From assembly GCA_963514005.1 (NCBI GenBank), contig OY740789.1:59706001-59770000 (forward strand): a DNA stretch of 64,000 bases, written 5' to 3'. The notes under the pieces were generated by a model. The model saw only the letters and a program-made list of their open reading frames with translations, was not told where the DNA came from and made no database searches. Each line of letters starts with the position of its first letter. The first letter of the stretch is position 1. Position numbers and translations under genes: made by a program. This document shows positions 3,087 through 64,000 of the stretch, in pieces. The DNA is from Raja brachyura (Eukaryota).

Positions 3087-4148
3087 TTACGGAGCTGCGG
3101 GACGTGGTTCCTTCACAGGAAAGAGATGTTGACGGTTGCATCTGTAAATGCCCCTGTCCGCACTCTCCAAGCGGGTGCAGAACCTCACCTCCATAATCCC
3201 GCAACTTGACCAAAGCTTTTTCAACATGCTCAGCATTATGTATTCATTTAAATTCAGATAAGGACATGACATAACACTTTGCTCCGGTATCTATCTTAGC
3301 GAGCGCAGTTTTGTTATTAACAATCAGGGTGACTTCAGGGTAGTGTTGCTTGTTAGTGGAAGGGAGGAGGGAGTGAATGTCTGAACTGTTACCTTGACAT
3401 TCAAAGAGGAGAGCAGGGGATGGCGCATCCAGCTCGTGGTTTTCGTTATCAGTAGGTTCATGTTTTAACAGGTGCACATTTGTTCTTGGGACGGATCGAG
3501 TCGCACGAGAATGGCAACATTTTGCGAAGTGGTTAAATTTCTTACAGTAGTTGCAAATTTTACCAGAAGCAACGCAGAATTCCCAACCTGGAGCATGAGA
3601 ACTGTTACAATTAGGGCACTGAGCAGTAGACCTTTGTTGCTGCCAGGGAGGGGAAGGCTGTGAAGGCTTGTTACAACAGGAGGTATCATCGGCTTGATTT
3701 AGTATCAGTTCAGTGTTACGAAGCAGTTTGTCTCTCACTTTGTCACTGAGTAAATCTCCAATGAGTTTGTTGCGGATCAGATCATCACATAAATCACCAA
3801 AGCGACAGAACTGAACTGTCATGTGTTTTAAGTCGCTCAAAAAGCACTCAATGGGTTAGTCCTGCTGTTGGAAACAAGCAAAAAAACTTGGTGCGTTTGA
3901 TTATAGAATTCGACGGGAGGTCAGCACCTGGACAAGATTGTTGTGGTCTAAAACAACAGGCGTGAAAGTAAAATGAGCCGCACACTTCTTTGCCTCAGGG
4001 CCAGCAAGGTTTAAGAGTATGGAAGCATGTGCCTTGTTGTGATGAACAATCCAAATGTAGTGGATGTAATTTGCTTGAACAGGCACCATTGTTCGGCGAT
4101 ATCAGAGTCAAAGATCAGAGGACTAGGACGGCGAGATGAATTTGCCAT
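3087..4148 (-). pseudogene. Disrupted gag-protease fused to an integrase C-terminal remnant
   Basis: ATG at 4148 (MANSSRRPSPLIFD...). Contains CPNCNSSHAPGWEFC and CNYCKKFNHFAKCC knuckles and AKIDTGAKC, with frameshifts and stops; no RT or RNaseH seen. Confidence 0.85.
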
Positions 4149-16339: not shown

Positions 16340-17465
16340 AGTCTCCACTATTGTCCCTGTACACAAAAATACAAGGATTACTGGTCTTAATGACTGCAGG
16401 TCTGTCGCACAGACCTTCGTAATCATGAAGGCCCTTGAAAGACTTGTGCTGGCCCAGCTGAAAAATATCACAAACCCCTGCAGTTTGAATACTGGGCCAA
16501 CAGATCAGTGGATGACACAGTCAACCTAGGCCTGCACTTCATCCTCCAGCACCTAGACCATCAGGGGACCTATGCAAGGATTTTGTTTGTGGATTTTAGC
16601 CCTGCATTCAACACCATTGTGCCAGAGCTGCTACACTCCAAACTATCCCAGTTGACTGTGCCTGAACTCCTTTGTCAGTGGATCAACTACCTCCTGACAG
16701 ACGGGAAGCAACATGTGAGGATGGGAAAGCACATCTTGGACCCACAGATCCTCAGCATAGGAGCGCTGCAAGGCTGTGTACTCTCCCCTCTCCTTTACTC
16801 TCTCTGCACCAACGACTGTACCTCCACAGACACCTCTATCAAGCTTCTCAAGTTTGCAGATGACAGAACCCTGATTGGACTGATCTAGGATGGGGATGGA
16901 TTTGCCTACAGACAGGAAGTGACACAGCTGCCATCCTGGTGCCTTCGTAACAACCTGGGGCTCAATTTTCTTAAGATAGTGGAATTGATAGTAGACTTTA
17001 GGAGAGCCCCCCTTCGTCTGGTTTGGCTCAGCCACCAAGGACGACATCCAGAGACTGCAGCGAATCGTTCGATCAGCTGAGAAGGTTGGTGGCTGCAACC
17101 TTTCCCCCCCCATTGACAAACTGTACACAGCAAGGGCCAGGAAGTGAGTGGGTAAGATCATCTCTGACCCCTCTCACCCTGGCCACAAACTCTTTGAAGC
17201 ATTTCCTTCTGGAAGGCAACTCTGGACTGTCAAAGCTGCCACGACCAGACACAAAAACAGCTTTTTTGCACCAGCAGTAACGCTACTCAATAATCAAAAC
17301 TCTCCTTTTACTCTGGTATTTTATTTCATTCACATGTTTAAATTCTAATGTTTTATTCTTAATGTTTTATGTTTTATTCTTAATTGTTTACTGTATGTCA
17401 TTTTGTTACTTGCGAGTGGAGCACCAAGGCAAATTCCTTGTATGTGTACATACTTGGCCAATAAA
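16340..17465 (+). mobile_element. Rex1/Babar LINE, 5'-truncated, with RT remnant
   Basis: YARILFVDFSPAFNTI, GALQGCVLSPLLYSL.TNDC, LLKFADD and IISDPSHPGH motifs; 3' tail aattccttgtatgtgtacatacttggccaataaa. Confidence 0.9.
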
Positions 17466-20490: not shown

Positions 20491-20705
20491 ATGCAACATA
20501 TCAGTACACAGAATCTCTTGAATTAGTTTTTTTTAATTTACCTCAAAGTTAAATTTGTTTTGTAATGTTTTGACCATTTCAGCTGTCCAGTACACACAGC
20601 AGACAAATTACCTTTGCACAAAGCATCTTTTGTCAGCAGCTTGAACTCGACAAAGATCTAACTCAGAAAAGATGTTATGCACAAGGACAAATATTTAGAA
20701 AACTC

Positions 20706-20830
20706 AAGGAACTGCAGATGCTGGTTTGCAAAGAAAGAGACAAACTGCTGGAATAACTCAGTTGAATAATGGTCGCCTATCCATGTTCTCCAGAGAAGTT
20801 GCCTGCCCTGCTGAGTTACTCCAGCACTTT
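20706..20830. mobile_element. Short PLE foldback
   Basis: aaggaactgcagatgctgg...tgctggaataactcag followed by its inverse ctgagttactccagca. Confidence 0.7.
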
Positions 20831-28493: not shown

Positions 28494-28676
28494 AATCCTC
28501 TCGCAAATGTCTGTTCAATGGCACTGAGTACACAGAAGGCGAGGTGTATCGCATGGAGGCTTGTTGGTTCTGCCGCTGTCGGGGTGGGATCTCATTGTGC
28601 TCCAAAGTAGAATGTGGAGAGCTGAAATGTGAGAACTATTACATCCCTGAGGGAGAGTGCTGTCCAGTTTGTCAGG
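28494..28676 (+). CDS. CRIM1: CRIM1-like exon, first VWC (chordin-type CR) domain (CRIM1 exon 6 homologue)
   Basis: Acceptor ttattgcag| and donor |gtaagt; 183 bp, phase 1-1. Translates (E)SSRKCLFNGTEYTEGEVYRMEACWFCRCRGGISLCSKVECGELKCENYYIPEGECCPVCQ, a frame absent from the ORF track. Confidence 0.92.
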
Positions 28677-30153
28677 GTAAGTTTCCATGGACAGGAATGA
28701 CGGTCTAGATTATAAACTGGTGCCTCCAGCTAAAGAAAAATTAAGCAATCACCCGGTGTGTATGTTGCATTTAAATTGCATTGTTCATATATGATATAAG
28801 TCTTTGTCTTGCTCTTGCAGTGATTTATGAGATGCCCACTGGCTATAGTTTTAGAAAATGCACAGATGGTATAATTCATAACGAACTTGAAATAATTCTA
28901 CATTAATATGTAACCAATGAAACAGCCATGAGGTAAACCTTGATACTGCATACTGTTGATAAAAGAAAGACATCTTTAAATAGAAAGGCGGTGTGTTTTC
29001 CTTTGGAAATGTGGAAAGGTTATACAAGAAAGAGCAGAAGTTGGTTCCCGTGTAGCTGTCATCTGTTTTTGTGGCACTTGGAATGTATTAAATACAGTTG
29101 AATACCCTACAGCAATAACACAGATGGATAGAATTTGCCTCAACCTTAAACTAGAAATGGATCACTTGTGACACTTTATAGTGTTAAGTTTTGAAAAGGA
29201 ACAGCCATGGATTAAAACCTGGCATTTCAATGTCCATGCATGCAAAAAAAAATCAAAACCTGCCCAGTAACCTTTATTGTCTTTACACATCAAATTAATT
29301 TGGGGAACTGTGTTTGTAGCACATATATTTGTGAAAATGTTGCTTCACACAAAAAGAAATCGAACATTTCTGTCTTATTATGGTGGCATGAATATGTAGT
29401 TTACAATTTTGTAAGACACCTGGATGGCAAAAGTAATTTGCATGTAGATCAATTAATAATTTGCAGAGCTTTTCTCTTTAAAAATCGGACCATTTTAAAA
29501 TTTATCATTTTGGAAACATTTTTCTTGCAGCATTTTTTATTTTTACCATATATTACACCTACTGAGCATTTCAGAATAATGTAGCCAGAGTACTTAACCT
29601 GGTGCAGGATTAATTCCAGTTAAATTTCTAAACATTTTGCATTTATACTGGCAATCTAGCAATGTTTTTGCTACCAAGCATGTTACTTGAACTGCTGAGC
29701 TTTTCCACCATTGTTTTTCTTTTGTTCCAGACTCCAGAATCTGTAGTCTCTTTTCATTTATTTTTGATTTTATGGACAGGTTATATTTGTGAACACATTA
29801 AGTTTTTGTAAATATTCCCATTCTTTGCATTTCTACAATAACTAACAAATCTAAGCATTCAGATTTATTCAGGAATGAAACAACTATGCATAAATTCCTT
29901 AAAAATCACCAAATGTAGGGCAACTGTAAGAATAAAACATATGGAAAGCAACATAGATTTTGTGGAGCCCAGGCCATTGTGTGGATGCTTTTCATGTCAA
30001 TCAATGTACAAAAGTCATAAATTATGCTAAGTTAGTGTCCCCCCCTTTAAATGTTAACTAAACAACATTAGTGTAACAAAATTATGAAGTTTCTTTTGCA
30101 TGTAAGAAAGTTTCTTATGACGTTTTTTTTACTAGGCTAAAATAATCACAAAG

Positions 30154-30340
30154 TGTGTAGGAAAGAACTGCAGATGCTGGTTTAAAATGAAGATAGACAC
30201 AAAACGGTGGAGTATTTCAGCGGGACAGACAGCATCTCTGGAGAGAAGGAATGTGTGACGTTTTAACCCGAAAAGTCACCTATTCCTTCTCTCCAGAGAT
30301 GCTGCCTGGCCCGCTAAGTTACTCCAGCATTTTGTGTATC
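30154..30340. mobile_element. PLE foldback element
   Basis: Inverted arms (cagcatctctggagagaaggaat / attccttctctccagagatgctg) centred on a collapsed hammerhead region. Confidence 0.8.
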
Positions 30341-30764
30341 TGATGAAGTGTGCCAGACACAAAAAGTCACCTCTTCCTCTTCCACAGATGCTGCCTGATC
30401 TGAATGTTTTCAGCATTTCTCCCTTTGATTTCCACACATGAGCTATTCCTCTTCATCCTAGATTCCTTGCTTGAAATCTGCCTTGGTCATGAACAGCACA
30501 TGTCAGACATCACTCCCTAATCTATAGTCTTTCTACAATCCCTCCTATTTCATACATGGCCAAAGTAATGTACAGAGGGATTTGGGGGTCCAAGTCCATA
30601 ACTTCCTGAAAGTAACAACATAAGAAGAGAGAATGGCAAAGAAGGCAAATGATATCCTTTCCTTGTTAAAGAAGGAACTGCAGATGCTGGAGAATCGAGG
30701 GTTACACAAAAAGCTGGAGAAACTCAGCGGGTGCAGCAGCATCTAAGGAGCGAAGGAGATAGGC

Positions 30765-30792
30765 GACGTTTCGGGTCGAGACCCTTCTTCAG
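30765..30792 (-). ncRNA. Minimal (short stem III) hammerhead ribozyme motif
   Basis: Minus strand CUGAAGA-A-GGGUCUCGACCC-GAAAC-GUC: intact CUGANGA and GAAA cores, stem II GGGU/ACCC, palindromic ACGU and a GUC cleavage triplet. Confidence 0.75.
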
Positions 30793-31023
30793 ACTGGTCA
30801 GGGATCAGGGAAACGAGAGATATAAACAGTGATATGGAGAGATAAAGCAAGAACAATGAGTGAAAGATATGCAAAAAAGTATTGGTGATAAGGGAAGCAA
30901 GCCTCCCTTAATGGCTTGCTTCCCTTATCACCAATACTTTTTTGCATATCTTTCACTCATTGTTCTTGCTTTATCTCTCCATATCACTGTTTATATCTCT
31001 CGTTTCCCTGATCCCTGACCAGT

Positions 31024-31051
31024 CTGAAGAAGGGTCTCGACCCGAAACGTC
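31024..31051 (+). ncRNA. Minimal (short stem III) hammerhead ribozyme motif
   Basis: ctgaagaagggtctcgacccgaaacgtc, intact core, sense to the host gene. Confidence 0.75.
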
Positions 31052-32883
31052 GCCTATCTCCTTCGCTCCTTAGATGCTGCTGCACCCGCTGAGTTTCTCC
31101 AGCTTTTTGTGATATCCTTTCCTTGATCATTTGGGGCATTGAGGGTGAGAGTCAGGAAGCCATGTTGCAGCTTTAAAATACTTTGGTTAGGCCACATTTG
31201 GAGTATTTTATGGCATTCTGGTCACCCCATTACAGGAAAGATATGCAGGTTTTGAAGAGGATGCAGAAGATGTTAAGATATTTTCATGAGCTGTAAGGAG
31301 AGGTTAGACCAACTTGGATTCTTTTCACTGGAGCGTTGGAAGTTGATTGAGTGTATAAAATTATAAAAGCCATTGATAGGTTGATAGGGTAGAACCTTTC
31401 CCAGGGCAGATATGTCAAAGACCAGAGGGCGTAGTTTTAGTGGGCGGGGGGAGGATGGGTTTCAAGGAGATGCGCAGGGCAATTTTTTTTACACAATTGG
31501 TGGTAGGTGCCTGGGTCATTATGACAGTGGCATTTAAGAGGTTTGTAGAAAGGTAAATGAATATGCAGGGAATGGAGGGATATGGATCAAGGATCTTAGT
31601 TTAACTTAGCATCAAGCTCAGCACAGGCAGGTGGGCTGTGGGCTGAAGGGCCTGTTACTGTGTTCTGTACTCTTTCATATTCCATGTTATCTACAGTCTC
31701 CTCTTTCTGTTCTTTCAACAATCACAGAGCTTTTGGCTCCCTTCTACCATCAGTCTGAAGTTCTCTCTGTGTTTGATCATTTCACAATTTAGAAAGAAAA
31801 ATGGTCAAATTCATCTCCTCGATGTGCCTTAAATGATGTGTGGATTTGTCCACCATTTGAAATCTTTCAGAATCTTTTGTAAAATGTTATAAATTATCAC
31901 TTGAGGGATCAGACACTGACGGTTGACTACAATGACACAAATAATCAATTCAAGAATTTAAGCCCTGAGTTTCAAGGCTGTAACCGGATAAAAGGAATTT
32001 CAGAAACAAGGTGTTAGGTGAGGGACTCGCCTAAACTAAATAAATATTGCAACTGAATGTTCAATATCAGATTTTAGTCTCCATCTGATGCTGGAACAGT
32101 TTTTAAACTTGACCATTTTGAAGTTCATGATGATAAAAAACAAAGCAAGATGTTTTCTGCAAAGATTTGATCTGATAAGAGATGAAAAATCCTGTTTACT
32201 GTTCCAGTTAATTAATATAAAACATGTATCTTGAATACCGCAAAATACATGATCTGCCTTTTGTGGTTGGAACCAATGCACTACAGAGATGACAAATGCT
32301 GGGATTTTTTTCCCCTGAAACTTGGAGTGAAATGTAAAAACCTTGGAGTGTATTTTCATGCAGTGAGACCACAATCCAGAAGGACTAACAGCTCAATCAG
32401 CAATCATTGGGCATCAAAAAACTCCAAAAATGTTATTACTTGATTGAAAACCTTTGCCATTGGTTTTACTTATTTCAATGCAGCAAAATACCTATAATCC
32501 AAGACATTCTGGACTGGTGCAGTCAGAATAGCAGATTTTTTTTGCATTATGGAGTGTTATTCTTATAAATATGATAACACAATTTTAATTCTTTTCTTTT
32601 AATGTTACATGGTTTTTTAAAATAAAAATTCCCAGTGGTCCTGGTAAATGTAACGAGTGCAGGTGCTAGGGCCCTAGTGAGTAGGAGGGAGCACAGAAAT
32701 AGGGGATGATTGTGAGTCAGAGAAACAAGGGAACAAGGAACAAGAATCCTGGTGAGTCAGAGGAAACATCATCCAGTGACTCATTTGCCAAACAATCAGG
32801 ATTTCTGAATAATCAGATAGCAACATAACATAATTTTATTAAAATTAAACTTTGGCCGATGCTTTAGCTTGTTAAAACTACAG

Positions 32884-33175
32884 GGGTGGCGCAGTGATGC
32901 AGCAGTAGAGCTGCTGCCTCACAGCGTCGGAGATCCAGGTTCGATCCTGACTAAGGGTGCTGTCTGTGTTGGGTTTGTATGTTCTCCCTCTGGTTTCCTT
33001 GGGTGCTCCAGTTTCCTCCCACATCCTCAAGACGTGCAGGTTTATAGGCTAAGTAGCTTCTATAAATTGCCCTAGTTTGTAGGATGCGAAACTGGGATAA
33101 CATAGAACTGGTGATTGATGGTGCCGTGGCTTCGGAGGGCCTAAGGACCTATTTTACACACTGTATCTGAAAACT
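32884..33175 (+). mobile_element. HE1-type V-SINE
   Basis: Head, V-domain gggtgctccagtttcctcccacatcctcaagacgtgcagg and tail. Confidence 0.82.
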
Positions 33176-33239
33176 AGAAGCCTAAAAAGTGTTAATGAAC
33201 AAAAATTGAGCTAATTGAAAGGAAGACTGAGAATACTAA

Positions 33240-33600
33240 GTGTGATGTCTAAGAATATGGCTTTGAATGGAAGCATATATACAGAAGATCTATGAAAGAA
33301 AGTTAATATCCCAGTGAACCTGGTAAGTGTAAAGAGTGCAAGAGCCAGAGCTCCAGTGAGTTGGAGAGAGCTAATAATAGAGGGAGCTAACGAGGGAACT
33401 AATAATAGTTTGGATGCCTTAAAACAAAAAAAAAGTGGAAATAGCTTTTGTCGTCCTGTACCTGGAACAAGAAGCTGAGGAAGAACAGAAGAGGACTGGT
33501 TAGACGATATTAAGTGTATTGCTGAAGAGGATGACTGAAGTATCCTGAGTAACCCAGGACAGACAATGGCGTGGACTCATTCAGTCCCTTTATTATTGCT
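33240..33600 (+). mobile_element. Old RTE-like LINE 3' remnant
   Basis: Decayed R.R..W.DDI....AQDR.WR-type C-terminal pattern (gaggactggttagacgatatt...caggacagacaatggcg). Confidence 0.4.
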
Positions 33601-35737
33601 GAGCTGACAGATGGAATCTTAGCACGAGTAGTAGTAACCGTATCGGAGCTTCGAGGAGTAGCTCAGAGAAGACTTTTGAAATACGTCAAGTAAAAATAAT
33701 GAGCCAGAACTTGTTGTCTGGGCGAGTTGTCTTGCCCGCTCCCACCGTGTGACTTGCATACCAGTTACAGACTTGACTTGTCCAGATGTCAGTCCGCTGC
33801 CTGAGGCTGTCTTGAACTAGAATGGCAGAGCTCTTCAAGGCAGCAGCGGCTTGAGCTGCATGATGCCATCAGGGGGCAGATCAAAACCTGCCCACTGAAC
33901 AGCTGAAGACATTTGGCAGCCCCCAAACCTGCCCACCCGTGTTATGTCAGCTGTCAAGTACTCTGAACATTTCAAAACACCTTCACTATTCAGAAGCAGT
34001 CAAACACGTGAGACAACCACTTCAAGCTTGAGATTCTGATAGGTTTCATTAATCAAAGGGAGTAATGCAATGGCACCATCAATATGTCATCAGGATCAAG
34101 ACCAAACAGAGTTATCATCATACTGAAGAAGTGCTTCAGAATCTTAAAAAGATCTGGAGCTTGACCAGCCAGGGTCAACCAGACACAGACCTGAAGGGGG
34201 ATCGCGGTGAAGTTCAGATAATGCAAAGGAGGAAGATGTTGAGGATGAAGGAAAACTAGCTGTTCTGATGCCCGCTTGAGATACCAAGGATATCCTCCTT
34301 ACTGCAAGGTTTATTTGGGTATCACCAGAAGATTCATGTCACAAGGAAACCCAAGAGCTATTCATCTCAGAGCCTCATAGCATCAACCAACTTGTCCAAG
34401 AGTTGGCTTCACTTTTCTCTCAGCATTCATGCACAGTGGACCTTTCAGTGCTTCACATGTCAATGTTTCCCAGAATTCAGCATCTATGTCCAGCTGAGCA
34501 GAGATTGAAAGTGAACTCTTCCCTCTTGCCCCTGTAACCATCTGTCCTTCTATCACTGGTTAGTGAAGTCACCAGCTGAAACCCAATTGATGTGAGATTC
34601 CACCATTTTCCAAATTTCTGAGCTGGTGAAAGGCAAAGTGCATCCTCAGGGCTTTCAGTTCCTAATATGAATCATTATTGACCATGTGTGTGTGATGAGT
34701 CTAAATGATGTGAAAGGCATGCAATAGACCTGGAAGCGAATATTATGAATTATCCTGACAATAATTATACTATAATAGAATAATAGAAACAATGGAAACC
34801 GTTTCATCTTGAGTGCCATATTATGTGAATGGCTGTTATTTAATTTTGTCACCAAGTAGATGGGAGGTTCTTGCTTTCATTGGCCAGAGTCAATGAAACA
34901 CCATCAATCTTCAGTGCTGCCTCATCTCAGTTCAAATGGGAAATGTGTCCAACAATTCTTTCCCTCTCCATGAGGTTCTATGCTCTCTTTTGCAATAAAG
35001 AATAAAGGAAAATAATAAAGAATTTTGCGTTCACCTGATTTCACCTGAGTAAAATTACTTGGATGAGGATAAAAATGAGCAAAAGTTAAATCATTGAGGA
35101 TGAGTGGGAATTGATTGGTTTGTTAAGATATCAGGAAATGCACAGCGAGAGAAGAATGTCTGCAGCTTCTAGATAAGTAGCTAAAGGATATGAGAGGAAA
35201 AAGTGTGGGTCTAGGGTGATGTATGCAGCAGGATGTATCACTGAACAGAGAGGCGTGCAAAACAGCATTATTCTTTTTTCAAAGATTGCAGATTTTATTA
35301 TGTTTGCCCCTCTGTTTAACATTAAAAATCTTGTGAAAGTTGGCATTTTTAAAGCTTTAATCACAAATAACTTGTGAAATTTAGGATCAAATCTTAAGTG
35401 AACCTGATCACTGCCAGGGCGGGAAAAATGTCCACCGGAATATGTAAAAATGTTATCGTTACCGGGTAGTTTTTTCGCGAAGATGTAAAGACACCCACAT
35501 ATACACAGACACGTACAAGATACACGTACAAGATATAAGTATATATGATGTAAAAAAAGTCTAACAATTTCTGCTTGCATCTCAGTTCACAGTGGCAAAA
35601 AATTGCAATCACTCTGCCAACCCCATTCATGACACCCCTCCATCATTTTGTTATTTCTTTGCCCTTTTTAGAATTTGCCTACAAGTGTCATATTATTTCA
35701 ATGTTAAATTATTCCTGTTGTCCACCCTATCATAGAC

Positions 35738-36112
35738 ACTCATAAGATCATAAGTGATAGTAGTAGAATTAAACCATTCAGCCCATCAAGCCTACTCCGC
35801 CATTCAATCATGGCTGATCTATCTCTCCCTCCTAACCCCATTCTCCTGCCTTCTCCCCACAACCCCTGACACCCCAACTAATCAGGAATCTGTTAATTAT
35901 TTCCTTAAAAACATCCATCGACTTGACTTCCGCATACATCTGTAGCAATGAATTCCACCGATTCACCATCCTCTGACTAAAGACATTCCTCGTCATCTCC
36001 TTTGTAAAAGATACTACCCTTAATTCTGAGTCCATGGCCTCTGGTTCTAGACTCTCCCACTAGCGGAAACATCCTCTCCACATAACCGCTCTATTCAGGC
36101 CTTTCACTATTC
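35738..36112 (-). mobile_element. CR1 LINE 3' end
   Basis: Minus-strand EMTRNVFSQRMVNRWNSL motif and tail cataagatcataag. Confidence 0.8.
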
Positions 36113-36129
36113 TGGCAGTTAAGTGCAGC

Positions 36130-37130
36130 TTTGTACAGTGTGGGCTTAGCATCGGGAAGTGGAAAACTACATCCGTCAACTGAAAGAGTGAACATTTCTA
36201 ATTTCAAACTACGTGTTGTTCTTATCACCCCTGTACTCACTGACCATCCACCGCATGAAGACTATCCTACCCCTGCACTTAAAACCTGTCACACATCTAC
36301 CATCTTACAATTCTGATGAACAATTCTGAAGCTACAACTCCGGTGAGTTGCCAAAAACGATGAAGAAAATATTTCTGAGCCAATCAAATCACACTCTGGT
36401 TCAGCAGTCTTTCAAGGATGTGAGAATATCGAAAAAAAATACTACAAAATATTTAATCCTTTTTATATATACAAGACTACTACAACTCAAAGAAAGCTAA
36501 AAGTAGTACCACATCCTTTAATCCCTCGGGATTTATCTGCCCTTTAGGTAGGGACTATCTGTGCCATTTCCAAACTGGCACAGTTTCTTCAAGTGGATAA
36601 CTGTTCCACTGCTTGGTTTCATGATGATGCCATGACTCATGCACTGTTAAGAAACTGGTAGTAAACAGCTGCCGGCATGTTTTGTGCACACGTGCGTGAT
36701 CATCCTATCACCAAATATGGGGAATTGTTGAATTATTCCCCAGATCAGACCCATGGTTGCTCCCTCTTAATCTATTGAGCATTTCCTCCATTTTCTATTT
36801 GCTTAATTTTAATTCTATTTGCTTAATCTTTAATTCTATTGCTTGTGCAACTATTACCGCCTTTGCTTGGGACCGCCATCCTTTTTGTCCCTTGCGCACT
36901 CCTACTATAGAACATTTCGCTCATCTTCCCATTTGTTCTTTCTTACCTCTGCCTTGTCTCCTATCGCCCAAAACCTACGCTCCCCATCCTTGTTCTCGTA
37001 TAGATCTGTGACACCGCTAACATCCTCCTGACACTGACGTGAAAATTAACGCTTTGTTTCCCTCTCCCTCGCCCACCCCCAGCATGGATGCTATTAAACC
37101 TCCTGGGTATGTCCAACATGGTTGATGTTT
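36130..37130 (+). mobile_element. Old Penelope-like element ORF/3' remnant
   Basis: RV.L..T.HP-like linker remnant at ~36210-36260 and a decayed ctgacgtgaaaattaac pLTR end near 37030-37130. Confidence 0.4.
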
Positions 37131-37264
37131 TCCTGAAATGTTATTTTAGTCTTGGTTTATATTCGCAGTTTCTTGCAACTTTTAGTTTTTCCCAAAATTA
37201 TTTTTAGGAAAATAATGAAATGGAATTTTTCCCATTCATAAAAACGCAGCAATCTCTCTTTTCA

Positions 37265-37525
37265 GGCAACTGAACGATCCTACCAACAACTCGAGAACAT
37301 TCCCGAGTTACTATTTACCTAATTCGAGACCCTCGGCCCCTTTTTGATCGGCCTTTACTAGACTTTATCTTGCACTAAACTTTATTCAAGTTATTCCCTT
37401 TATCATGTAGCTATACACTGTGGATGACTCGATTGGAATCATGGATTGTCTTTCGGCTGACTGGTTAGCACGTAACAAAAGCTTTTCACTGTACCTCGGT
37501 ACACGTGACAATAAACTAAACTCAA
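37265..37525 (+). mobile_element. Rex1/Babar-type 3' tail
   Basis: gcttttcactgtacctcggtacacgtgacaataaactaaact. Confidence 0.75.
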
Positions 37526-37554
37526 ACCTTCCAAACGGCACGAAAAGCATTTGG

Positions 37555-37820
37555 GTTTAGTTTAGTTTACCCATTAAGATCACGCTGAATGGCGATCCCC
37601 GTACTCTATAATACTATCTTACACACTAGAAACAATTTACAATTTTTACCAAAGCTAATTAGCTTCCAAGCCTGTACATCTTTGGAGTGTGGGAGGAAAC
37701 TGGAGCACCCGGGCAAAACCCACGCAGTCACAGGGAAAACGTACAAACGCCATACAGATAGCGCTCAAACCCGGGTCTCTGGTGCTGTATGGCAGCAACT
37801 GTACTGCTGCACCACCATAT
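37555..37820 (-). mobile_element. HE1-type V-SINE
   Basis: Reverse V-domain tttggagtgtgggaggaaactggagcacccgggcaaaacccacgcagtcacaggg. Confidence 0.85.
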
Positions 37821-37892
37821 CACCCCTGTTATTATTTTATTCTGAATTTATCATTTAACTTAATTCAATCACTCTAACTCTGTCCTGTGCAG

Positions 37893-38090
37893 ATCCAGTT
37901 TTCCCAGCCATCGGTGGAGTAGGATGTTTGGCGAGAGATCAGATTCGAGCACATGGCGATCACTGGCGAGAAGATGACTGTACTTTCTGCCATTGCGTCA
38001 ACGGAGAACATCACTGCGTTGCCATGGCTTGCAAACAGACCTGTCAGAATCCAGTCAAAATACCAGGGGAATGCTGCCCTTTCTGTGAAG
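37893..38090 (+). CDS. CRIM1: CRIM1-like exon, second VWC domain (CRIM1 exon 7 homologue)
   Basis: Acceptor ctgtgcag| and donor |gtaaga; 198 bp, phase 1-1. Translates (D)PVFPAIGGVGCLARDQIRAHGDHWREDDCTFCHCVNGEHHCVAMACKQTCQNPVKIPGECCPFCE; AHGD.WREDDCTFC is characteristic of CRIM1. Confidence 0.95.
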
Positions 38091-38625: not shown

Positions 38626-38805
38626 TGTGTAGGAAGGAACTGCAGATGCTGGTTTACACGAAGGTAGACACAAAATGTTAGTGTAACTCAGCGGGAATGA
38701 GTCTAACTGAGTAAGTCTGAAGAAGGGTTTTGACCCAAAATGTCACATATTCCTTTTCTCCAGAGATGTGCCTGACCCACTGCGTTACTCCAGCATTTTG
38801 TGTCT
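38626..38805. mobile_element. PLE foldback element with decayed hammerhead
   Basis: Inverted tail arm followed by gtctgaagaagggttttgacccaaaatgtc...tactccagcattttgtgtct. Confidence 0.8.
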
Positions 38806-47054: not shown

Positions 47055-48483
47055 ACATAGAGTCATAGAGTGTGAAAACAGCCCTTTGGCCCAACTTGCC
47101 CACACCGACCATCATCTCCCAGCTGCATTAGTCCTACCTGCCTGTGCTTAGTCCATATCCCTCCAAACCTGTCCTATCCATGTACCTGTTTCTTAAACAT
47201 TGGGATGTTCCAAGCCTCAACTACACCCTCTGGCAGCTTGTTCCATACACCCACCACCCATTGTGTGAAAACATTACCCCTTAGATTCCTATTCCTATCT
47301 TTTCCCCTTCACCTTGAACCTATGTCCTCTGGTCCTCGATTCCCCTACTCTGGGCAAGAGACTGTGCATCTACCCGATCTAGTCCTCTCATGATTTTATA
47401 CACCTCTATCAGAACGCCCCTCATCCTCCTGTGCTCCAAGGAATATAGACCCCGCCTACTCAACCTCTCCCTATAGCTCACACGCTCTAGTCCTGGCAAC
47501 ATCCTCGTAAATCTTTGCTGAGCCCTTTCAAGCTTGACAATATATTTCCTATAACATTGTGGCCAGAACTGAACACAATATTCTAAATGTGGTCTTGCCA
47601 ACACCTTATATAACTGCATCATGACCTCCCAACTTATATATTCAATACTCTGACTGATGAAGGCCAATGTCCAATAGCCGTTTTGACCAGCTTATCTACC
47701 TGCGACTCGACTTTCAAGGAACCACGCACCCGCACTCCTAGATCCTTCTGCTGTACAATGCTACCCAGAGGCCTATCATTTACTGTGTAGGTCCTGCCCT
47801 TGTTAGATGTCCCAAAATGCAGCACCTCACACTTCTCTGTATTAAATTCCATCAACCATTTCTTACACAACCATCTTCACTATCTGCAAAACCACTAACT
47901 TTTGTATCATCAGCAAACTTGCTAATCTTGCCATGTATGTTCTCATCCAAATCATTGATGTAGATGACCATCAGTAACAGGCTCAGCACCAAACCCTGAG
48001 GCACACCACTAGTCACAGGCCTCCGGTCCGAGAAGCAACCTTCCACCATCACCCTCTACTTCCGTCTATGGAGCGAATTTGCTATCCATTCAGCTATCTC
48101 TCCTTGGATTCGATGCGATCTAACCTTCCAGAGTGGCCTACCTTGTCAAATGCCTTACTGAGATCCATGTATACAACATCTACAGCTCTGCCCTCATCGG
48201 CCTTTTTGATCACGTCTTCAAAAAAATCAGATTTGTGAGACACGACCTCCCATGTACAAAACCATGCTGATTGTCCCTAATCAGCCCCTGCCCATCCAAA
48301 TGCCTGTATAACCTATCCCTCAGAACACTCTCTAGGAAGTTTCTGACTACAAATGTTAAGCTCATCGACCTATAGTTCCCAGCATTTTCCCTGCAGCCCT
48401 TCTTGAAAAGAGGCACAACATTTGCCACCCTCCAGTCTTCCGGCACCTCTCCTGTTTTGAAGGATGATTTATAAATTTCAACC
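47055..48483 (-). mobile_element. CR1 (HER1-like) LINE, 5'-truncated, with RT
   Basis: VPEDWRVANVVPLFKKG, QHGFVHGRSCLTNL, VTSGVPQG, ISKFADDTK and LARPHLEYCVQFW motifs. Confidence 0.92.
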
Positions 48484-54884: not shown

Positions 54885-55045
54885 AAAATGTTGAAGATAG
54901 ACACAAAGATAGACCCTACTTCAGAATAAGTCCCGACCCGAAATTTCACCTATCCATTTTCTCCAGAGATGCTGCCTGACCTGCTGAGTTACTCCAGGAT
55001 GTTGTGTCTATCATTGGTGTAAACCAGCATCTGCAGTTCCTTGTT
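54885..55045. mobile_element. PLE end with short inverted arm
   Basis: gatagacaca / tgtgtctatc inversion, cccgacccgaaatttcacc and the ccagcatctgcagttcctt tail. Confidence 0.7.
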
Positions 55046-55117
55046 ATTACGTTGTATGATCTTGAACCTGAGTTGGATTATATGGCAATGAAAAGATTGG
55101 CCCAATTAATTGTGTAA

Positions 55118-56196: not shown

Positions 56197-56271
56197 ATTA
56201 TAAACAGCATGAATGGAAGCATACATTTACACACTTATTAAATTTATGCTTCCATTCATGCTGTTTATAAT
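56197..56271. repeat. 75-nt hairpin (27-bp perfect stem, 33 bp with one mismatch)
   Basis: attataaacagcatgaatggaagcata / tatgcttccattcatgctgtttataat, with a 9-nt loop. Confidence 0.9.
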
Positions 56272-56381: not shown

Positions 56382-56559
56382 GTGTTAAAGAAGGAACTGC
56401 AGATGCTGGAGAATCGAGGGTACACAAAAGGCTGGAGAAACTCAGCGGGTGCAGCAGCATCTAAGGAGCGAAGGAGAAGGTCTTGACCCGAAACGTCGCC
56501 TATCTCCTTCGCTCCTTAGATGCTGCTGCACCCGCTGAGTTTCTCCAGCCTTTTGTGTA
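56382..56559. mobile_element. Young PLE foldback element
   Basis: ~60-bp perfect arms (agggtacacaaaaggctggagaaactcagcggg...gcgaaggaga and its inverse); 12-bp TSD ccctgattgttt (56370-56381, 56560-56571). Confidence 0.88.
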
Positions 56560-59500
56560 CCCTGATTGTTTATCATGGATTGTTTACCCATTACAAATCT
56601 TTGCTAATTTCTCTGGTCAGCTAAAAAAATTATAAGATGTTTATTGACTGTCTTTAATTCTAGTAATTTCCAGACAAAATATGAGTCTAACTAGTTTATA
56701 ATTCCCAAGTTAACCCCTCTAATTTTTTATATAAAAGGCAGTGATATCCACCATTTTTATTCTAGAATCTTTTCCGATTTAAAGCAGCTTGTGATGACTG
56801 TATTTCCTCTTGGCCAATCCCGTAGAATTGAGGATTATTCTAGTTTTGTGGATTTTGAGTCGGCTATTGAGGATCCAGCTATACTCATACCCATGTTCCT
56901 AGTCCCAAGCAAGGCCTATAGGTCTCCTCAGCCCCAATATTACATTGGAAGGATGAAGACTGCAAAACTCTTATCTACAGAAACCTAAGCCATTTATCTG
57001 CTCTTGGCAATTTGGCACTCTGTGGTGTTATTTTCAATCATCATTTTTTGTTTTGTTTCTGTTCATTTTAGCAAATCCCAGTCCCAGATTCAGTATTAGC
57101 CTCTTTTTCAGTTCTCTGGCCTGTTGTTCCCTTTTCCTATTGTAAATAGTAACGCACTTAATTATTTGTCTGATAATTCCCTAATTTCATTCATAATATC
57201 ATCGTTATTAGTTAGTAAGGGAAGTGCCAAGTATCTTTCCCTTCAGATATTTATCAATCATCCAGAACCCTTGCATCAATAATGTTTTTTTTCCATGGAG
57301 TCGATGGTCTCGGTATTGCTGGGTGTGTTTCGTTGCAATCTGACCACTCAGTATTTGACTCTTCCCCTCAGACAAGCCTTCCAGGCCATACAACTGGTGG
57401 TGTTCGACATAAATGTTACAAAACTGGTCATGGTGACCTTCCACAAGCTTTTCACCACTTCAAGTTAGGCATTGAGCCAATCTGATGATAGTCGCATGCC
57501 AAGTTCAAGCATAATGTCAATGCTTGGTCTACAAGGCAACCTGCCAGACCTGAAAGACTTGCCACTACCATCAATGGAGGCTGGTTGGTTGCCAAAACAT
57601 TTCTTTGGGTTCTAGCTTTTATATCTCTCACTGATGAGTCTCTCTGCTACGTCTGTGATCAGAAGAAAGTGTAATAGAAGTTTGGGTGATCTTTGTGGGA
57701 GATCTTTAGCAGGAAAAATGTCTGTATTTTGCAAGTTGGGATTATCTTCCATGTCATTCCATTGGAATGAAAATAGTGATTCTAGGGAAATCCTCCTTTC
57801 TCAGCCAAATGTGGAACTGAATTCAGTGCTTGGGTATCTAATGGTGCTCTGGAATGATCATGGAAAATATTATTTTCAATTTTGATTCTGGGTGAATGAA
57901 TTTGATATAAATGTTTTTATGAAAATCCTATCACTCCTCTTAGAAACTTTTGAAAACTTAGGAAGACTCATTGTGGTTATATACACTCTGAAAAATGTTT
58001 CTTCCTTCCTCTGTCTTTTCTATCAAAAAGCTCCTTCGCTGTCTCTTTTAATTATCTACTTTTCTGTTTCTGTATTTCTGTGATGAAAACAAGCAGTCTG
58101 TCTTTCTGCCATGAGGCTTCTGAATGGTCCTTGCATTAGCTAGAGTGCTGTCTGATTCATCTCTATCGCATTGTGGACATTTAACCACCTCTGGAACTGT
58201 TGCACTACAATGCTGAGAACTATTTTCTGCATTCAGTATCTTTTGCTTTGCTCTACCGATTTAACTTGATTGTATCTATGTATAGTATTATCTGATTGAT
58301 TGGAAAGCATGCACAAGACAATAATAAACCTAACTTAAACCTCAACTATAAAGTAATCACTGCCACTTAAGTTAATTTAAATTAAGTGTATAAATGGGTG
58401 AAAGTCAATCATAATCATAACAGAATGCCTTAATGGTGTGCATCATTTACCATGCAAAATAGATATGAAGACAGAGTACCCACAAGCTTGAATTGCACTC
58501 CATTCTTATATTGCGAATGCCTTACCTGCTTTAAGCAAACTCTGCATTCTTTTATTCAGTTTATTTCAGACAAATGGAAATATGTATTATTAGATATAGA
58601 GTACATTTAATTGTAGATAGCTTTCTTATTGTGTACAAAATTGAATTTATATTACTCTGTTATTTAAAATTGCTGCTATGGTGATTATATTACACTGGTA
58701 TTTAAAATTGCTTCTGTAATTCATTAAAATAGTTAGCTTTCCCAGTAAGATCATGGAAGATCTCTGTCCGATTAGGTTATGTAAATACCCATTACAGTCT
58801 GTATCTGAGCTGCTTAAATTATAATGTGTAAATACAAAGCAAAAAAAAAAATCTTACATAAAATAAATGTTGATCAAGCTGAATTTCTGTCTGTCTCTGT
58901 GTTTGTGTGTTTATCTTTGTCCTTCAATGTCCACCAGTGTATGAAAAGTGAGTCCTGCTGCTGTTTTGAATAAGCTGCATAATAATAACATTGCCTACTT
59001 GAATGTAACTTGTTGGGATGTGTGAATGTGTGTCAATCTTTCAAAATGGGAGCGATGAGAGTCAATTACCCAAATCTGCTGCTAACATCTCTGGGACTAT
59101 GAGACCATAATATGAGCAAAAGAGGTGATATTGAAAATGATACAAAATATAAAATATGACTATCACACAGACATCAATGTCAATTTGTTTAACGCTCTTC
59201 GGATTTCCTGTATAATTATTCACCTTGCATTTTGTGTGAAAGTTTTTTGATGCTTTTTGACTATGTTCAGAGATGGACATATTTTATTAAATTATGGATT
59301 TGTCAACATTTCTCTCTCTATTAACTGCACTTCAGCATTCATAGCGACCGAGAGAGTAGAAAAGCAACGTTTTCGCAGTCTCATTATCATCCACTTTGTA
59401 AAACGGTGGATGTCCAGGGTAATTAAATATCTTTCCCTGTGAAAAAACTGTTGCCACTTACAATGCTTTCTCTTGTCACACTGTGCTAAGAAAATGGCAA

Positions 59501-60636: not shown

Positions 60637-62907
60637 GTGAGTCACACCTTAATCTGATTAGGTGCACAGTAAATGTTTTCTGTGTTGGGTATGCCAGTGA
60701 GCACAATATGTCTGTCTTAAATAATATGGTCATGAGCATAAAACTCTTTAAACATATAAAAATAATTAAAGGATCAATTTTTAATATGCTTCACTCTCTG
60801 CGCGGCAAGGAGTTTTTCTTGATAGGAGAGTGACGCAGGAGATCCGATACCAGAGGTCGGGGTAATTTTATCCGTGAAAAATGAAGGAGTACCCCCCGCA
60901 AAGTCCAGTTCTCTAATTTAAACCAAAAAAGTATAGTTTTCTAACTAATTGGAATAGTAAGTGACACTGTTCCTCCACACCCGATATCTAGATTCTTCTT
61001 GAGCAGATATAAAGGCAATGGAGTAGCCATGTTTTCAATGAATGGCCATCATGTATGATTGCTGCAAAATCGTATCAGATAGAAAGGTTATAAGGCTGGC
61101 AGGCACTCGGAGGGGAAATGTTACATGGAAGCTATGGATGATGTTCTCAACTTTTTAAAGAAAGATATTACTGGTATAAAACAACTTTTACTTTTGGCTT
61201 TGCCTCTAACACTGCATGATACTGTACTGAAAAATGTAGGAGAACACTTGTGTTCTATTCCCTTGATGTAAATACAATTTTAATAGCGCTGTCAAGAGAA
61301 TTATAGTGAAAGGAAAGCTTAGGAGGAAGTATAATCTTGAGCATAACTTCAAAGGTAAATGGAAATTTATTTCTGGACATTCAGTTCCGAAACTTGATTT
61401 TCCACAAATGAATGTAACATGTTAGGACTCCTACCATCTTTAATCTCTGACGTTAGTTCCAGAATAACCTTGCGTGTCCCAAAACATCTGCATTCACTTA
61501 ACATTTCATCGGTGCTTTGCATTGACCTCTACGATGTTGTGCAAGTGCTCAGCATAAGTTTTTTCAGCCTGTTATAAACTTGTTACTCTTGGGTCCCATC
61601 TAATAAGAATCTATGCCAGACTAATCTGGATGTTAATTTATAACAACATGTCTGCTCCACCTGCTTTATTTTTATGACTTTAGGTCCACAAAGGCAGTTT
61701 TTAAATACATAATGTTGAATTGAATTGCTAGCATCTGAGGGTCAGTAACTTTGTATATAATAGTAACCCATTAATATCCCACAGATTTGCCTACTCAATT
61801 TATATTACAGGACATCGTGCTAACCACCAGTGTACAGATATTTAGTGTAGGTTTTCTAAGCCTAATCCAACAATGTCAACAATTTCCTGATATTTGCCAT
61901 TAAGACTCACAAATAATAAATTGCCTCATGATTTCTTTTAAAAAAGATAAATTTCACGGATTTCATAATTTTATCTGGCTCCTAAATTGGGCAATTGGGC
62001 AAAGCGCAGTAACAGTTTACCTTGAAATTCTTGGTAAAATCAAATTTCTAAATTTCCACATAAATTAGAACTAACTATTAAGCTTGATATAGACATCTGG
62101 TTTTTTTTTCAGTAACTTAATTTAGCTTAGTTTCAATAGTTCAGTTTAATTTGTTTTCTTAATCCTTGAAGGGTTTACAGGTTTCCTTCTCTTCCATTCT
62201 CCAGTATGTTTATCTCTGAATTCTTCTCAAGTTTCTCCCAACATCACAAACTTGAGCAACATCTCATCATCTCAGCTGCGGTCTTAAGTTCCCATCTACC
62301 ATTAATTGTGCTTGATACCTTCCCGACCACTTGACTTGTCCTGGACTTCAGTATGAAGGCATTCAACTGCGGAAATATCAAGGGTCCTGAAGATCTGATA
62401 CCAGTGTTTCTGATTGTCTGTTCAATTAGAGCACTGGCCATTGCACCCAGCCGTGGAGTGGAGCAGAGACTCCCTGACTACAGAGTCCAAAGCACCTAGC
62501 ATCTCTCAACTTTATTCCAGGGAGTGTTGGTGTTGGAAGGGCATTCCCATACACTGGAATATAATGCAGGGAAACAAAATACATGCACAAAGTCAAAACT
62601 TATTATATGCTATTTTAATGTTTTTAATCACCTTAATAAGTTCAATGCCTTTAACTTTTTTGGGTTATTTAAAGTCATTTTAATTGATTAGCACCTCACA
62701 ACTTTTGACCGCCAGTGAGCCTTCAGGATATGATCCCTTCGGCCTTCCCTGCGGCTTGGAGCCGACTCTTTTTCACCAGACAATTGTTAGATACCAAAGG
62801 TTGTCTAATTCAGCCCTCCACAACCGTAAAATGGAACTTCAGGTAGAGGGGGATTGCAAGCAGTTGGCTGCTCAGCAGACTGCTACTGGAAGAATATAGC
62901 TTGTGAA

Positions 62908-63316
62908 GATTGCTTTTAGTCATCCCCTTATCTGTCGTCTGGAGACCACCATGCTGTGATACTCTCAAATCCCTTTTGGTTTTATTTGAGACATATAGAC
63001 AGGAAATGCTGGAAAAACTGAGTAGGTCAAGTGTCACCTGTGGACAGAGTCAGTTTCCAGTAGGGGGGGGAAGGTGGAAGAGGGTTAAGTAGAACAAAGG
63101 AAATGCCTGTGCAAGGGGGTTGCTATGGCTTATTGGCAGTAGATACCAGCACAGTTAGTTTCTTGGCCTATGCTATGGGTTGTTCATGGTAAAGTGGTTG
63201 GGAGGCCAGGCATGTTGCACAGAGTCTATATGTTTCAAATAAAAACAAAAGGAATTTGAGAGTATCACGGCATGGTGGTCTCCAGACTACAGATAAGGGG
63301 ATGACTAAAAGCAATC
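62908..63316. repeat. 93-bp inverted repeat with 223-bp spacer
   Basis: 62908-63000 versus 63224-63316, about five mismatches by eye. The duplicated peptide RVS.HGGLQTTDKGMTKSN appears on both strands in the ORF track. Confidence 0.9.
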
Positions 63317-64000
63317 AACACCACAGGTCAGGAATGACCCCGGGTCAATGGAGCAGGGAGGCAGCAGCTCAACCAGCTGCACTATGCTATCCCATTTTCA
63401 ATGCAAGATCAGGCTGGCCAGTTGCTGATGAAGCACTGACATTATTTCAGATACAATATTTGTTGCTGTCTCCTGCCTGACACTGCCTGAGTGAACGGGC
63501 AATCCTTTCTGTGAGAATCATTAATGCTCAGTGATAAATCTTGCTGTTATGCCATCAACCTGCAAATTGCTCAGGTCTGAACATTTTGTTTCTGTTTCCC
63601 ATTAAAACTGCATAATTGTGTTAAACCTTGAATCCATTAAAAACATTTGAGACAATCTAAATTTACAGATCTTACTTTTATGTTCTATGATTTCTATTCA
63701 TCAAATTGGACGAGATCTTGCTGATGTGGACTCTCTGTACCCAGTTGTCACGCACACTGTGCAGAACTAGTCCAGCTGCCAGTGCCCCCAATGCATGCGA
63801 GACCTTAGCAGCATTATCTCATCGTGGATCAAATAAAGCCCTGCTTCCCACAGCAAACCCGTGGAAAGCCTGAAGGCCGGCAGAGATCATCTACCTTCCC
63901 CATCTCCACCATCAAGGCTTTGAGGGGTTTTAAATGACTCTGGCATTCAGAAAAATAATGTAAAATTGAATTAATATTCTAAAATGGTAAAATAAATTCA

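Follow-up and report, generated by a model that had tools for sequence, protein, structure and literature searches.

Penelope-like elements (PLEs) typically insert as an inverted, 5'-truncated copy with a 30–40-bp tail (PMC8557442, PMC3846280). In the insertions of endonuclease-positive PLEs described in these two sources the truncated copies lie head to head, one arm alone bears the 30–40-bp tail, the insert is bounded by a target-site duplication (TSD) and it may sit within another retroelement. We describe an insert sharing all of these features in an intron of Raja brachyura (contig OY740789.1 of assembly GCA_963514005.1), located in a window of 64 kb (positions 59,706,001 to 59,770,000, forward strand), to which all coordinates below and all counts of family loci and hammerhead cores refer. 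Its tail measures 39 nt (31 nt in Pen2a_Av). It differs in its TSD, which is longer than in the Adineta examples (16 nt vs. 8–10 nt), in a 6–7-nt templated insertion at its centre, and in possessing no open-reading frame (ORF) body, as it consists of two stubs of ~200 nt. The insert is real and its structure unusually clean, but it represents an ordinary type of insertion that has been described before: the combination of an inverted pseudo-long terminal repeat (pLTR), a tail and a TSD is the published PLE signature and the norm of this family, and is not new.

Two further systems are close to it. In the Poseidon PLE of Anolis carolinensis (PAc, PMC11167929) a hammerhead likewise lies upstream of two end points which bound a tail; the PAc ORF starts at helix II, whereas we found no conserved frame through the pLTR of the present family, and the accessible text of the PAc study reports no head-to-head products. 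Non-long-terminal-repeat (non-LTR) retrozymes (bioRxiv 10.64898/2026.07.22.740005) share a type I hammerhead and an origin from PLE pLTRs, and are reported in one chondrichthyan genome, but are defined by head-to-tail tandem units, whereas this insert is head to head with a tail. We therefore rejected a retrozyme classification, for which at least two head-to-tail units, each with a hammerhead, would be needed. We found no paper on this family or its hairpins in cartilaginous fishes; as subscription papers, Repbase and supplements lay outside the scope of that search, we make no claim of absence.

Structure of the insert and its target

The insert is a head-to-head double stub with a one-sided tail, which added 444 nt to a host intron and duplicated 16 nt of it. 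From left to right, its parts are:

30650..30665, + strand: left TSD copy, 16 nt; its final 2 nt also fit the family tail end, a candidate 2-nt primer-template pairing
30666..30704, − strand: unpaired tail, 39 nt, family sequence beyond the point where arm 2 stops
30705..30903, − strand: arm 1 (tail-bearing), a 5'-truncated pLTR-like element end, sense on the − strand
30904..30909, + strand: non-native centre insert, which together with the next base repeats the 7-mer of 30921–30927 and is likely locally templated
30910..30912, + strand: native loop bases, 3 nt belonging to arm 2 on loose-end evidence
30913..31111, + strand: arm 2 (tail-less), in the sense of the host gene and matching arm 1 at 199/199 nt
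31110..31125, + strand: right TSD copy, whose first 2 nt are common to the end of arm 2

The arms are exactly complementary over 199/199 nt, and an inverted-repeat search with extension returned 206 nt at 99%. The loop between them (9 nt, 30904–30912) reads TCCCTTAAT. The TSD, a 16-nt direct repeat on both sides of the insert, reads TGATATCCTTTCCTTG, and by a rough estimate a chance match of this kind between two fixed 40-nt windows has a probability of ~5e-7. The surrounding host features are:

28494..28676, + strand: upstream host exon (VWC domain), ends in phase 1
28677..37892, + strand: host intron holding the insert, GT..AG, 9.2 kb
30545..30665, + strand: left part of the interrupted long interspersed element (LINE) relic, the target; frame ends KKANDILSL; left boundary approximate, with repeat-level depth from 30545
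31110..31431, + strand: right part of the same LINE relic; frame starts DILSLIIWGIEG
37893..38090, + strand: downstream host exon (VWC domain), begins in phase 1

The 16-mer is a true duplication of target DNA, since both flanks are parts of one LINE relic, which we take to be CR1-like, and its frame continues across the TSD. The right part of this relic matches another at 47323–47691 (tblastn E 9.5e-12). Six Cys-rich exon candidates lie on the + strand, the first of which had no Pfam match, whilst the other five match Pfam domains in the order VWC, VWC, antistasin, antistasin, VWC, presumably the arrangement of a CRIM1-like gene. Because the insert sits in a + strand intron between phase-matched VWC exons, arm 2 is sense to the pre-mRNA. 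The initial annotation, which was made from the letters alone, had proposed a perfect 199-bp foldback with a 9-nt loop, a 16-bp TSD and a one-sided unpaired extension of ~39 bp, located in a CRIM1-like intron, and all of this was borne out by measurement: the extension is 39 nt (30666–30704), both TSD copies were located, the right one overlapping arm 2 by 2 nt, and the intron is a GT..AG intron between two phase-matched exons.

An abundant family with two end points

Six window copies used as queries returned 22 fragments, which were merged into 16 loci (4 of the 16 without inspection by eye). Six of these are head-to-head pairs (those at 20.7k, 30.2k, 38.6k, 54.9k and 56.4k, and the insert under study) and ten are single-armed. 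The 3' ends of the 16 aligned copies fall at reference position 195–201 in seven copies, at 211 in one and at 232–241 in eight, the latter being the tail end present in the insert. The family therefore has two 3' end points ~40 nt apart, and the two arms of the insert end at these two. Two other foldbacks are particularly informative:

56383..56567, no strand assigned: another young foldback from the subfamily of the insert, matching it at 97/98 and 91/93 nt, with a centre of its own and a 12-nt TSD
30154..30338, no strand assigned: older decayed foldback, 310 nt upstream of the insert, arms 61/71 identical

Both arms of the 56.4k foldback share a variant which is absent from the insert under study, and a copy at 43.6k is 128/131 identical to the insert yet single-armed. 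As copies sharing 97–98% identity have differing centres or none, the mirror half is made at each insertion. The terminal-looking inverted arms and the TSD could otherwise have indicated a palindromic non-autonomous element, similar to a miniature inverted-repeat transposable element (MITE) or a retrozyme, which moves as a finished unit; this is very improbable, however, in a family where centres, arm lengths and ends vary among near-identical copies, ten of 16 loci are single-armed, one arm bears a 39-nt tail, clear TSDs measure 12 and 16 nt, and tandem units are absent.

Contigs from four of the 21 listed runs were aligned to 29600–30945, with the second arm and the right flank outside this stretch: X1 and X18 (organism A), X3 (organism B) and X7 (organism C). 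The family is very abundant, with 150,857 contigs of X1 alone aligned to these 1,346 nt, although summed depth is not copy number. Contig ends carrying unrelated letters (loose ends) cluster at the same two end points of the older copy (30154 and 30337) at ~450–535 contigs per run in three runs.

The insert almost certainly belongs to the PLEs, as the initial annotation had suggested. It combines a head-to-head inverted 5'-truncated copy, a 39-nt tail at one end only, two family 3' end points, a TSD and a hammerhead motif in the terminal repeat. Some results count against this assignment. No PLE-type reverse transcriptase (RT)/GIY-YIG ORF could be tied to the family, none being present among the 27 window ORFs of at least 120 aa, and the PLE label consequently rests on the architecture and the hammerhead. 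No family member was found in scans of metagenome and viral contigs: the 29-nt core pattern had 0 loci there, and the 20-nt tail pattern had six, all with only 20–23 nt matched, which we take as chance. A 42-aa query from the ATG at 30742 scored 0 of 8 candidates in a homologue search, and an ORF start at this ATG is unsupported, as the frames are not preserved across eight copies.

Several other features of the family were observed. Head-to-head pairs at 20705–20830, 30154–30338, 38626–38805, 54892–55050 and 56383–56567 are in different stages of decay, and five of the six pairs carry their tail on the left-hand side, antisense to the host. An internal deletion has removed ~70 nt of the antisense arm of the 54.9k pair; a third, direct and decayed family fragment (30353–30418) lies right behind the 30.2k foldback; and an older single-armed, tail-bearing copy at 2256–2543 has an apparent 11-nt TSD. 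Five of the 16 aligned copies (38714, 38968, 43716, 52561 and 54921) start at reference position 103–111, just ahead of the hammerhead core and at a candidate splice acceptor (described below), and loose ends cluster at 30794–30796 in all four runs, some with a purine-rich consensus, which is pyrimidine-rich in the element sense; these starts and loose ends could reflect spliced templates or subfamily divergence. Joints from 30337 to 30663–30672, in up to 45 contigs per run, link the tail-less sense end to the antisense tail start, and look as if foldback units stood in tandem or new copies had inserted at the ends of old ones.

Age and reality of the insertion

The flanks of the insert show zero differences over 865 letters in X1 (organism A), 7 in 956 (0.7%) in X3 (organism B) and 13 in 965 (1.3%), with 5 gaps, in X7 (organism C). 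One contig each in organisms B and C aligns to 30575–30665, stops at the last base of the TSD and then continues for 87 and 70 letters, respectively, unlike the tail, at single-copy depth. These contigs likely represent the empty site. As two relatives appear to hold the empty site, the insert would be younger than the 0.7% split, and identical arms are therefore to be expected. The proposal of a very recent insertion thereby gains a likely empty site in relatives at 0.7% and 1.3%. Two points weigh on the other side. The empty site is deduced from the positions at which the alignments break off and not from the 87 and 70 unlike letters themselves, and no listed piece of X1 or X18 lies over either junction, the centre or 30598–30665, which leaves the filled allele without read confirmation, though such a gap is no proof of absence.

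Perfect identity of the arms, together with this lack of listed organism A read pieces showing the junctions or centre, is also what would be expected of a foldback artefact of sequencing or assembly, or of arms equalised by polishing. We regard an artefact as extremely unlikely, as the sequence behind the inversion rejoins the expected right flank, with a 16-nt TSD and in a continuous LINE frame, the tail offset corresponds to the two end points of the family, and old, decayed copies of the same design exist; the centre, moreover, holds a templated insert.

A proposed origin from two priming events

In our reading the insert is probably a young, 5'-truncated insertion of a very abundant PLE, made by priming from both nicked target strands and joining of the two cDNAs at the centre. 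Behind the left TSD the + strand reads into antisense tail and arm, and behind the right TSD the − strand reads into an antisense arm, such that each arm looks like a cDNA primed from a target 3'-OH. Both outer junctions have 2 nt which fit target and element alike. The element endonuclease would have nicked both strands 16 nt apart within the old LINE relic, the left 3'-OH would then have primed at the tail end and the right 3'-OH 39 nt further in. Synthesis would have halted ~200 nt into the pLTR, and the ends would have been joined by annealing with a 6–7-nt locally templated insert; as an option at this step, one arm may have been filled in from the other. We favour this model of two joined cDNAs because in Anolis the PLE protein both nicks and extends the two target strands, beginning synthesis at two RNA positions that bound the tail (PMC11167929); nicking and extension of both strands by PAc would yield the geometry of this insert.

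The closest analogue outside PLEs is twin priming in L1 (PMC11702581), where both target 3' ends also prime on RNA, the TSD is discrete (12–18 bp) and the inner junction is formed by end joining. L1 cDNAs, however, copy mostly adjacent, non-overlapping parts, which gives an inversion, whereas here the same 199 nt were copied twice, which gives a palindrome offset by the tail.

The centre of the hairpin bears on how the arms were joined. The native upstream sequence is agreed upon by loose ends in X3 (7 contigs, behind 30903) and X18 (1 contig, before 30910), and as it differs there, the last three loop bases are assigned to arm 2 and the first six to neither arm. The centre 7-mer occurs at four places on the + strand of the window, 30904 and 30921 among them. 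Short, locally templated inserts are typical of annealing-based end joining.

An alternative is that the same PLE insertion arose by self-priming. A single cDNA (or an antisense RNA) would then bend back on itself at the centre and serve as its own template, and resolution of the resulting hairpin by the endonuclease would leave the tail on one side. Self-priming agrees with the locally templated 6–7-mer at the centre, with arms that match at 199/199 nt and whose ends lie no more than 3 nt apart, and with the 56.4k foldback, both arms of which share the variant that the insert lacks. We nevertheless consider self-priming rather unlikely as the route to this insert. The tail-less arm owns the unpaired centre in five of six pairs and reaches further 5' than its partner by 40, 64, 25, 5 and 3 nt (the 54.9k pair is undecidable, a tie within alignment error), an asymmetry which snap-back of the tail-bearing cDNA alone cannot produce. 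Self-priming would still require a second priming on RNA, because a tail-less arm cannot template the tail. Furthermore, both outer junctions fall on family end points, with a 2-nt primer-template match in the insert, and both strands are extended in vitro (PMC11167929).

Priming from both nicks has its own difficulties. The 5' asymmetry is clear in only three of three pairs (sign test p = 0.25), the remaining differences being 3–5 nt, and with just three large differences it is a lead only. Arm ends lying within 3 nt of each other are a prediction of self-priming and not of independent truncation, and Arkhipova et al. 2013 favour self-priming for head-to-head palindromes in Adineta (PMC3846280), which is the published reading of such structures. 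A hybrid route, with fold-back of the internal cDNA and annealing of the tail cDNA to this fold, would fit all of the data. Between double priming and self-priming as such, we lean towards the former.

Hammerhead motif and candidate splice acceptor

Each arm contains a minimal hammerhead core, and arm 2 also contains a candidate acceptor:

31024..31051, + strand: minimal hammerhead core of arm 2, C3 at 31024 and C17 at 31051; helix II of 4 bp, palindromic ACGU, helix I of 2 bp
30765..30792, − strand: arm 1 counterpart of this minimal hammerhead core, in antisense orientation relative to the host pre-mRNA
30996..31022, + strand: candidate 3' splice acceptor, a pyrimidine tract followed by CAG, immediately ahead of helix I and base-paired in the predicted duplex

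The core reads CTGAAGA-A-GGGT-CTCG-ACCC-GAA-ACGT-C on the + strand (31024–31051) and on the − strand (30792–30765). A pattern search of the window found three intact cores (+31024–31051, −30792–30765 and −43713–43686), one of which is on the host strand. Any single transcript of the insert carries one hammerhead in sense and its antisense as the other. Compared with minimal hammerhead ribozymes (min-HHRs) of metazoan PLEs (PMC4209133), the insert shares the core CUGANGA...GAAA...UH, the extra nucleotide after A9 (between 9 and 10.1), the G10.1–C11.1 pair and the palindromic 15.2–16.2 helix without a loop 3. Opposite-strand min-HHR pairs 100–700 bp apart were already noted in that study, and 232 nt separate the cores here. 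Helix II has 4 bp here vs. 7–8 in Schistosoma, and helix I has 2 bp, as in D. virilis, vs. 4–5 in Schistosoma (PMC4209133): instead of the 4–5 bp, our helix I consists of a U.G and a G-C pair followed by A.C and C.U mismatches. Rfam returned nothing at its gathering score across the window, and the 49 matches at E ≤ 10 in 30100–31200 did not include a hammerhead family.

Folding predictions give helix II a probability of ~3% in the lone arm. For the complete insert the predicted probability of both hammerhead helices (I and II) is 0, with a penalty of ~70 kcal/mol when they are imposed (−444.2 vs. −373.7). A dimer restricted to helices II and the ACGU helix is predicted at −12.7 vs. −26.6 kcal/mol for the best dimer. 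The first annotation had claimed an intact hammerhead in each arm, masked by ~200 bp of double-stranded RNA (dsRNA) of its own making. The core is indeed intact in both arms and the predicted duplex does remove the hammerhead helices, but helix I has just 2 bp and the Rfam models gave no match, and with helix II at ~3% in the lone arm there would probably be little activity to mask. A single metazoan minimal hammerhead showed no cleavage in vitro (PMC4209133), and in PAc the hammerhead, which cut only in the presence of protein, was not required for PLE insertion in vitro (PMC11167929). The hammerhead is likely an inert passenger at this insert, because helix I has 2 bp, the core is predicted to be buried in a duplex, and there is no second intact core in the host sense.

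In D. virilis the 3' end of an intron lies at helix I (PMC4209133), and the candidate acceptor of the insert likewise adjoins helix I. It has 19 pyrimidines of 25, vs. 13–21 for the six host acceptors, and 10 of the 273 YAG sites of the intron reach 19. The pyrimidine tract and CAG thus form a candidate cryptic acceptor in the host sense, which the duplex would hide.

Other elements in the window

A MITE-like inverted repeat at 62903–63321 has 98-nt arms (93%) around 223 nt, without a match to the family queries. At 56197–56271 an AT-rich hairpin with 33-nt arms (97%) and a 9-nt loop lies 110 nt from the 56.4k foldback. An RVT_1 fragment (16439–16885, E 3.3e-12) belongs to another retroelement in an upstream intron, without a link to the family, and a Gag-like ORF with a CCHC-type motif on the − strand (3244–3855), read by eye, is probably a relic of an LTR retrotransposon.

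Fate of the double-stranded RNA and meaning of the insert

If the intron is transcribed, arm 1 would be made first and arm 2 would pair with it at once, burying the hammerhead and the candidate acceptor in a 199-bp duplex. The predicted hairpin is a perfect 199-bp duplex with a 9-nt loop and 107 adenosines in the host sense, and ADAR editing of it is likely: Penelope repeats undergo heavy hyper-editing in lizard, palindromic repeats rank among the top ADAR targets in frog, and 200,171 unique editing sites are reported in elephant shark (PMC5625713). A>G differences in the aligned contigs were rejected as a sign of editing, because the source runs are not on record as RNA and hence provide no evidence. 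A microRNA (miRNA) precursor was also rejected; the best match, MIR8562, reached 126 bits against a gathering threshold of 211, and this and the other sub-threshold Rfam miRNA and small nucleolar RNA (snoRNA) matches reflect generic hairpin pairing.

The duplex, its 107 adenosines and the editing precedents might suggest a co-opted regulatory hairpin, a dedicated ADAR/Dicer substrate in the CRIM1-like pre-mRNA which silences the family or gates the ribozyme or splicing, and small interfering RNAs (siRNAs) do map to Penelope inverted regions in transgenic Drosophila (PMC3681739). Such a role is highly doubtful, however: the insert is likely absent from relatives 0.7–1.3% away, the five other pairs in the window decay freely (arms 24/28, 61/71 and 25/30 identical in decayed pairs), the fly siRNAs did not silence Penelope efficiently (PMC3681739), and the hammerhead fold is not favoured even in the lone arm. 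The initial annotation had envisaged that the insert could feed endo-siRNA production against the whole PLE family, but in a family of such abundance, with foldbacks so frequent (five further pairs within the 64 kb), nothing marks this copy out as a special source. The insert is likely neutral.

A broader proposal, which we put forward as speculative and on balance improbable, is that in this family a single PLE complex, priming from both nicks on one RNA with the tail-less cDNA always leading, makes the hairpin as its primary product. Such foldbacks, with acceptor and hammerhead buried by the second arm, would be tolerated within introns, and would make up the main class of perfect dsRNA for ADAR in these genomes. 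If true, the rule would be readable from the copies, with a loop native to the tail-less arm and a templated centre, and would settle the origin of PLE inverted copies.

As one young copy of a very abundant repeat, the locus is of little weight itself. It can be used as a presence/absence marker among close relatives, and is a good single site for measuring ADAR editing of PLE hairpins. As a specimen it is clean, with both priming junctions, the tail, the TSD, the templated centre and a likely empty site all legible, and many such copies could test double priming against self-priming, the step of PLE integration left open by the 2024 in vitro study.

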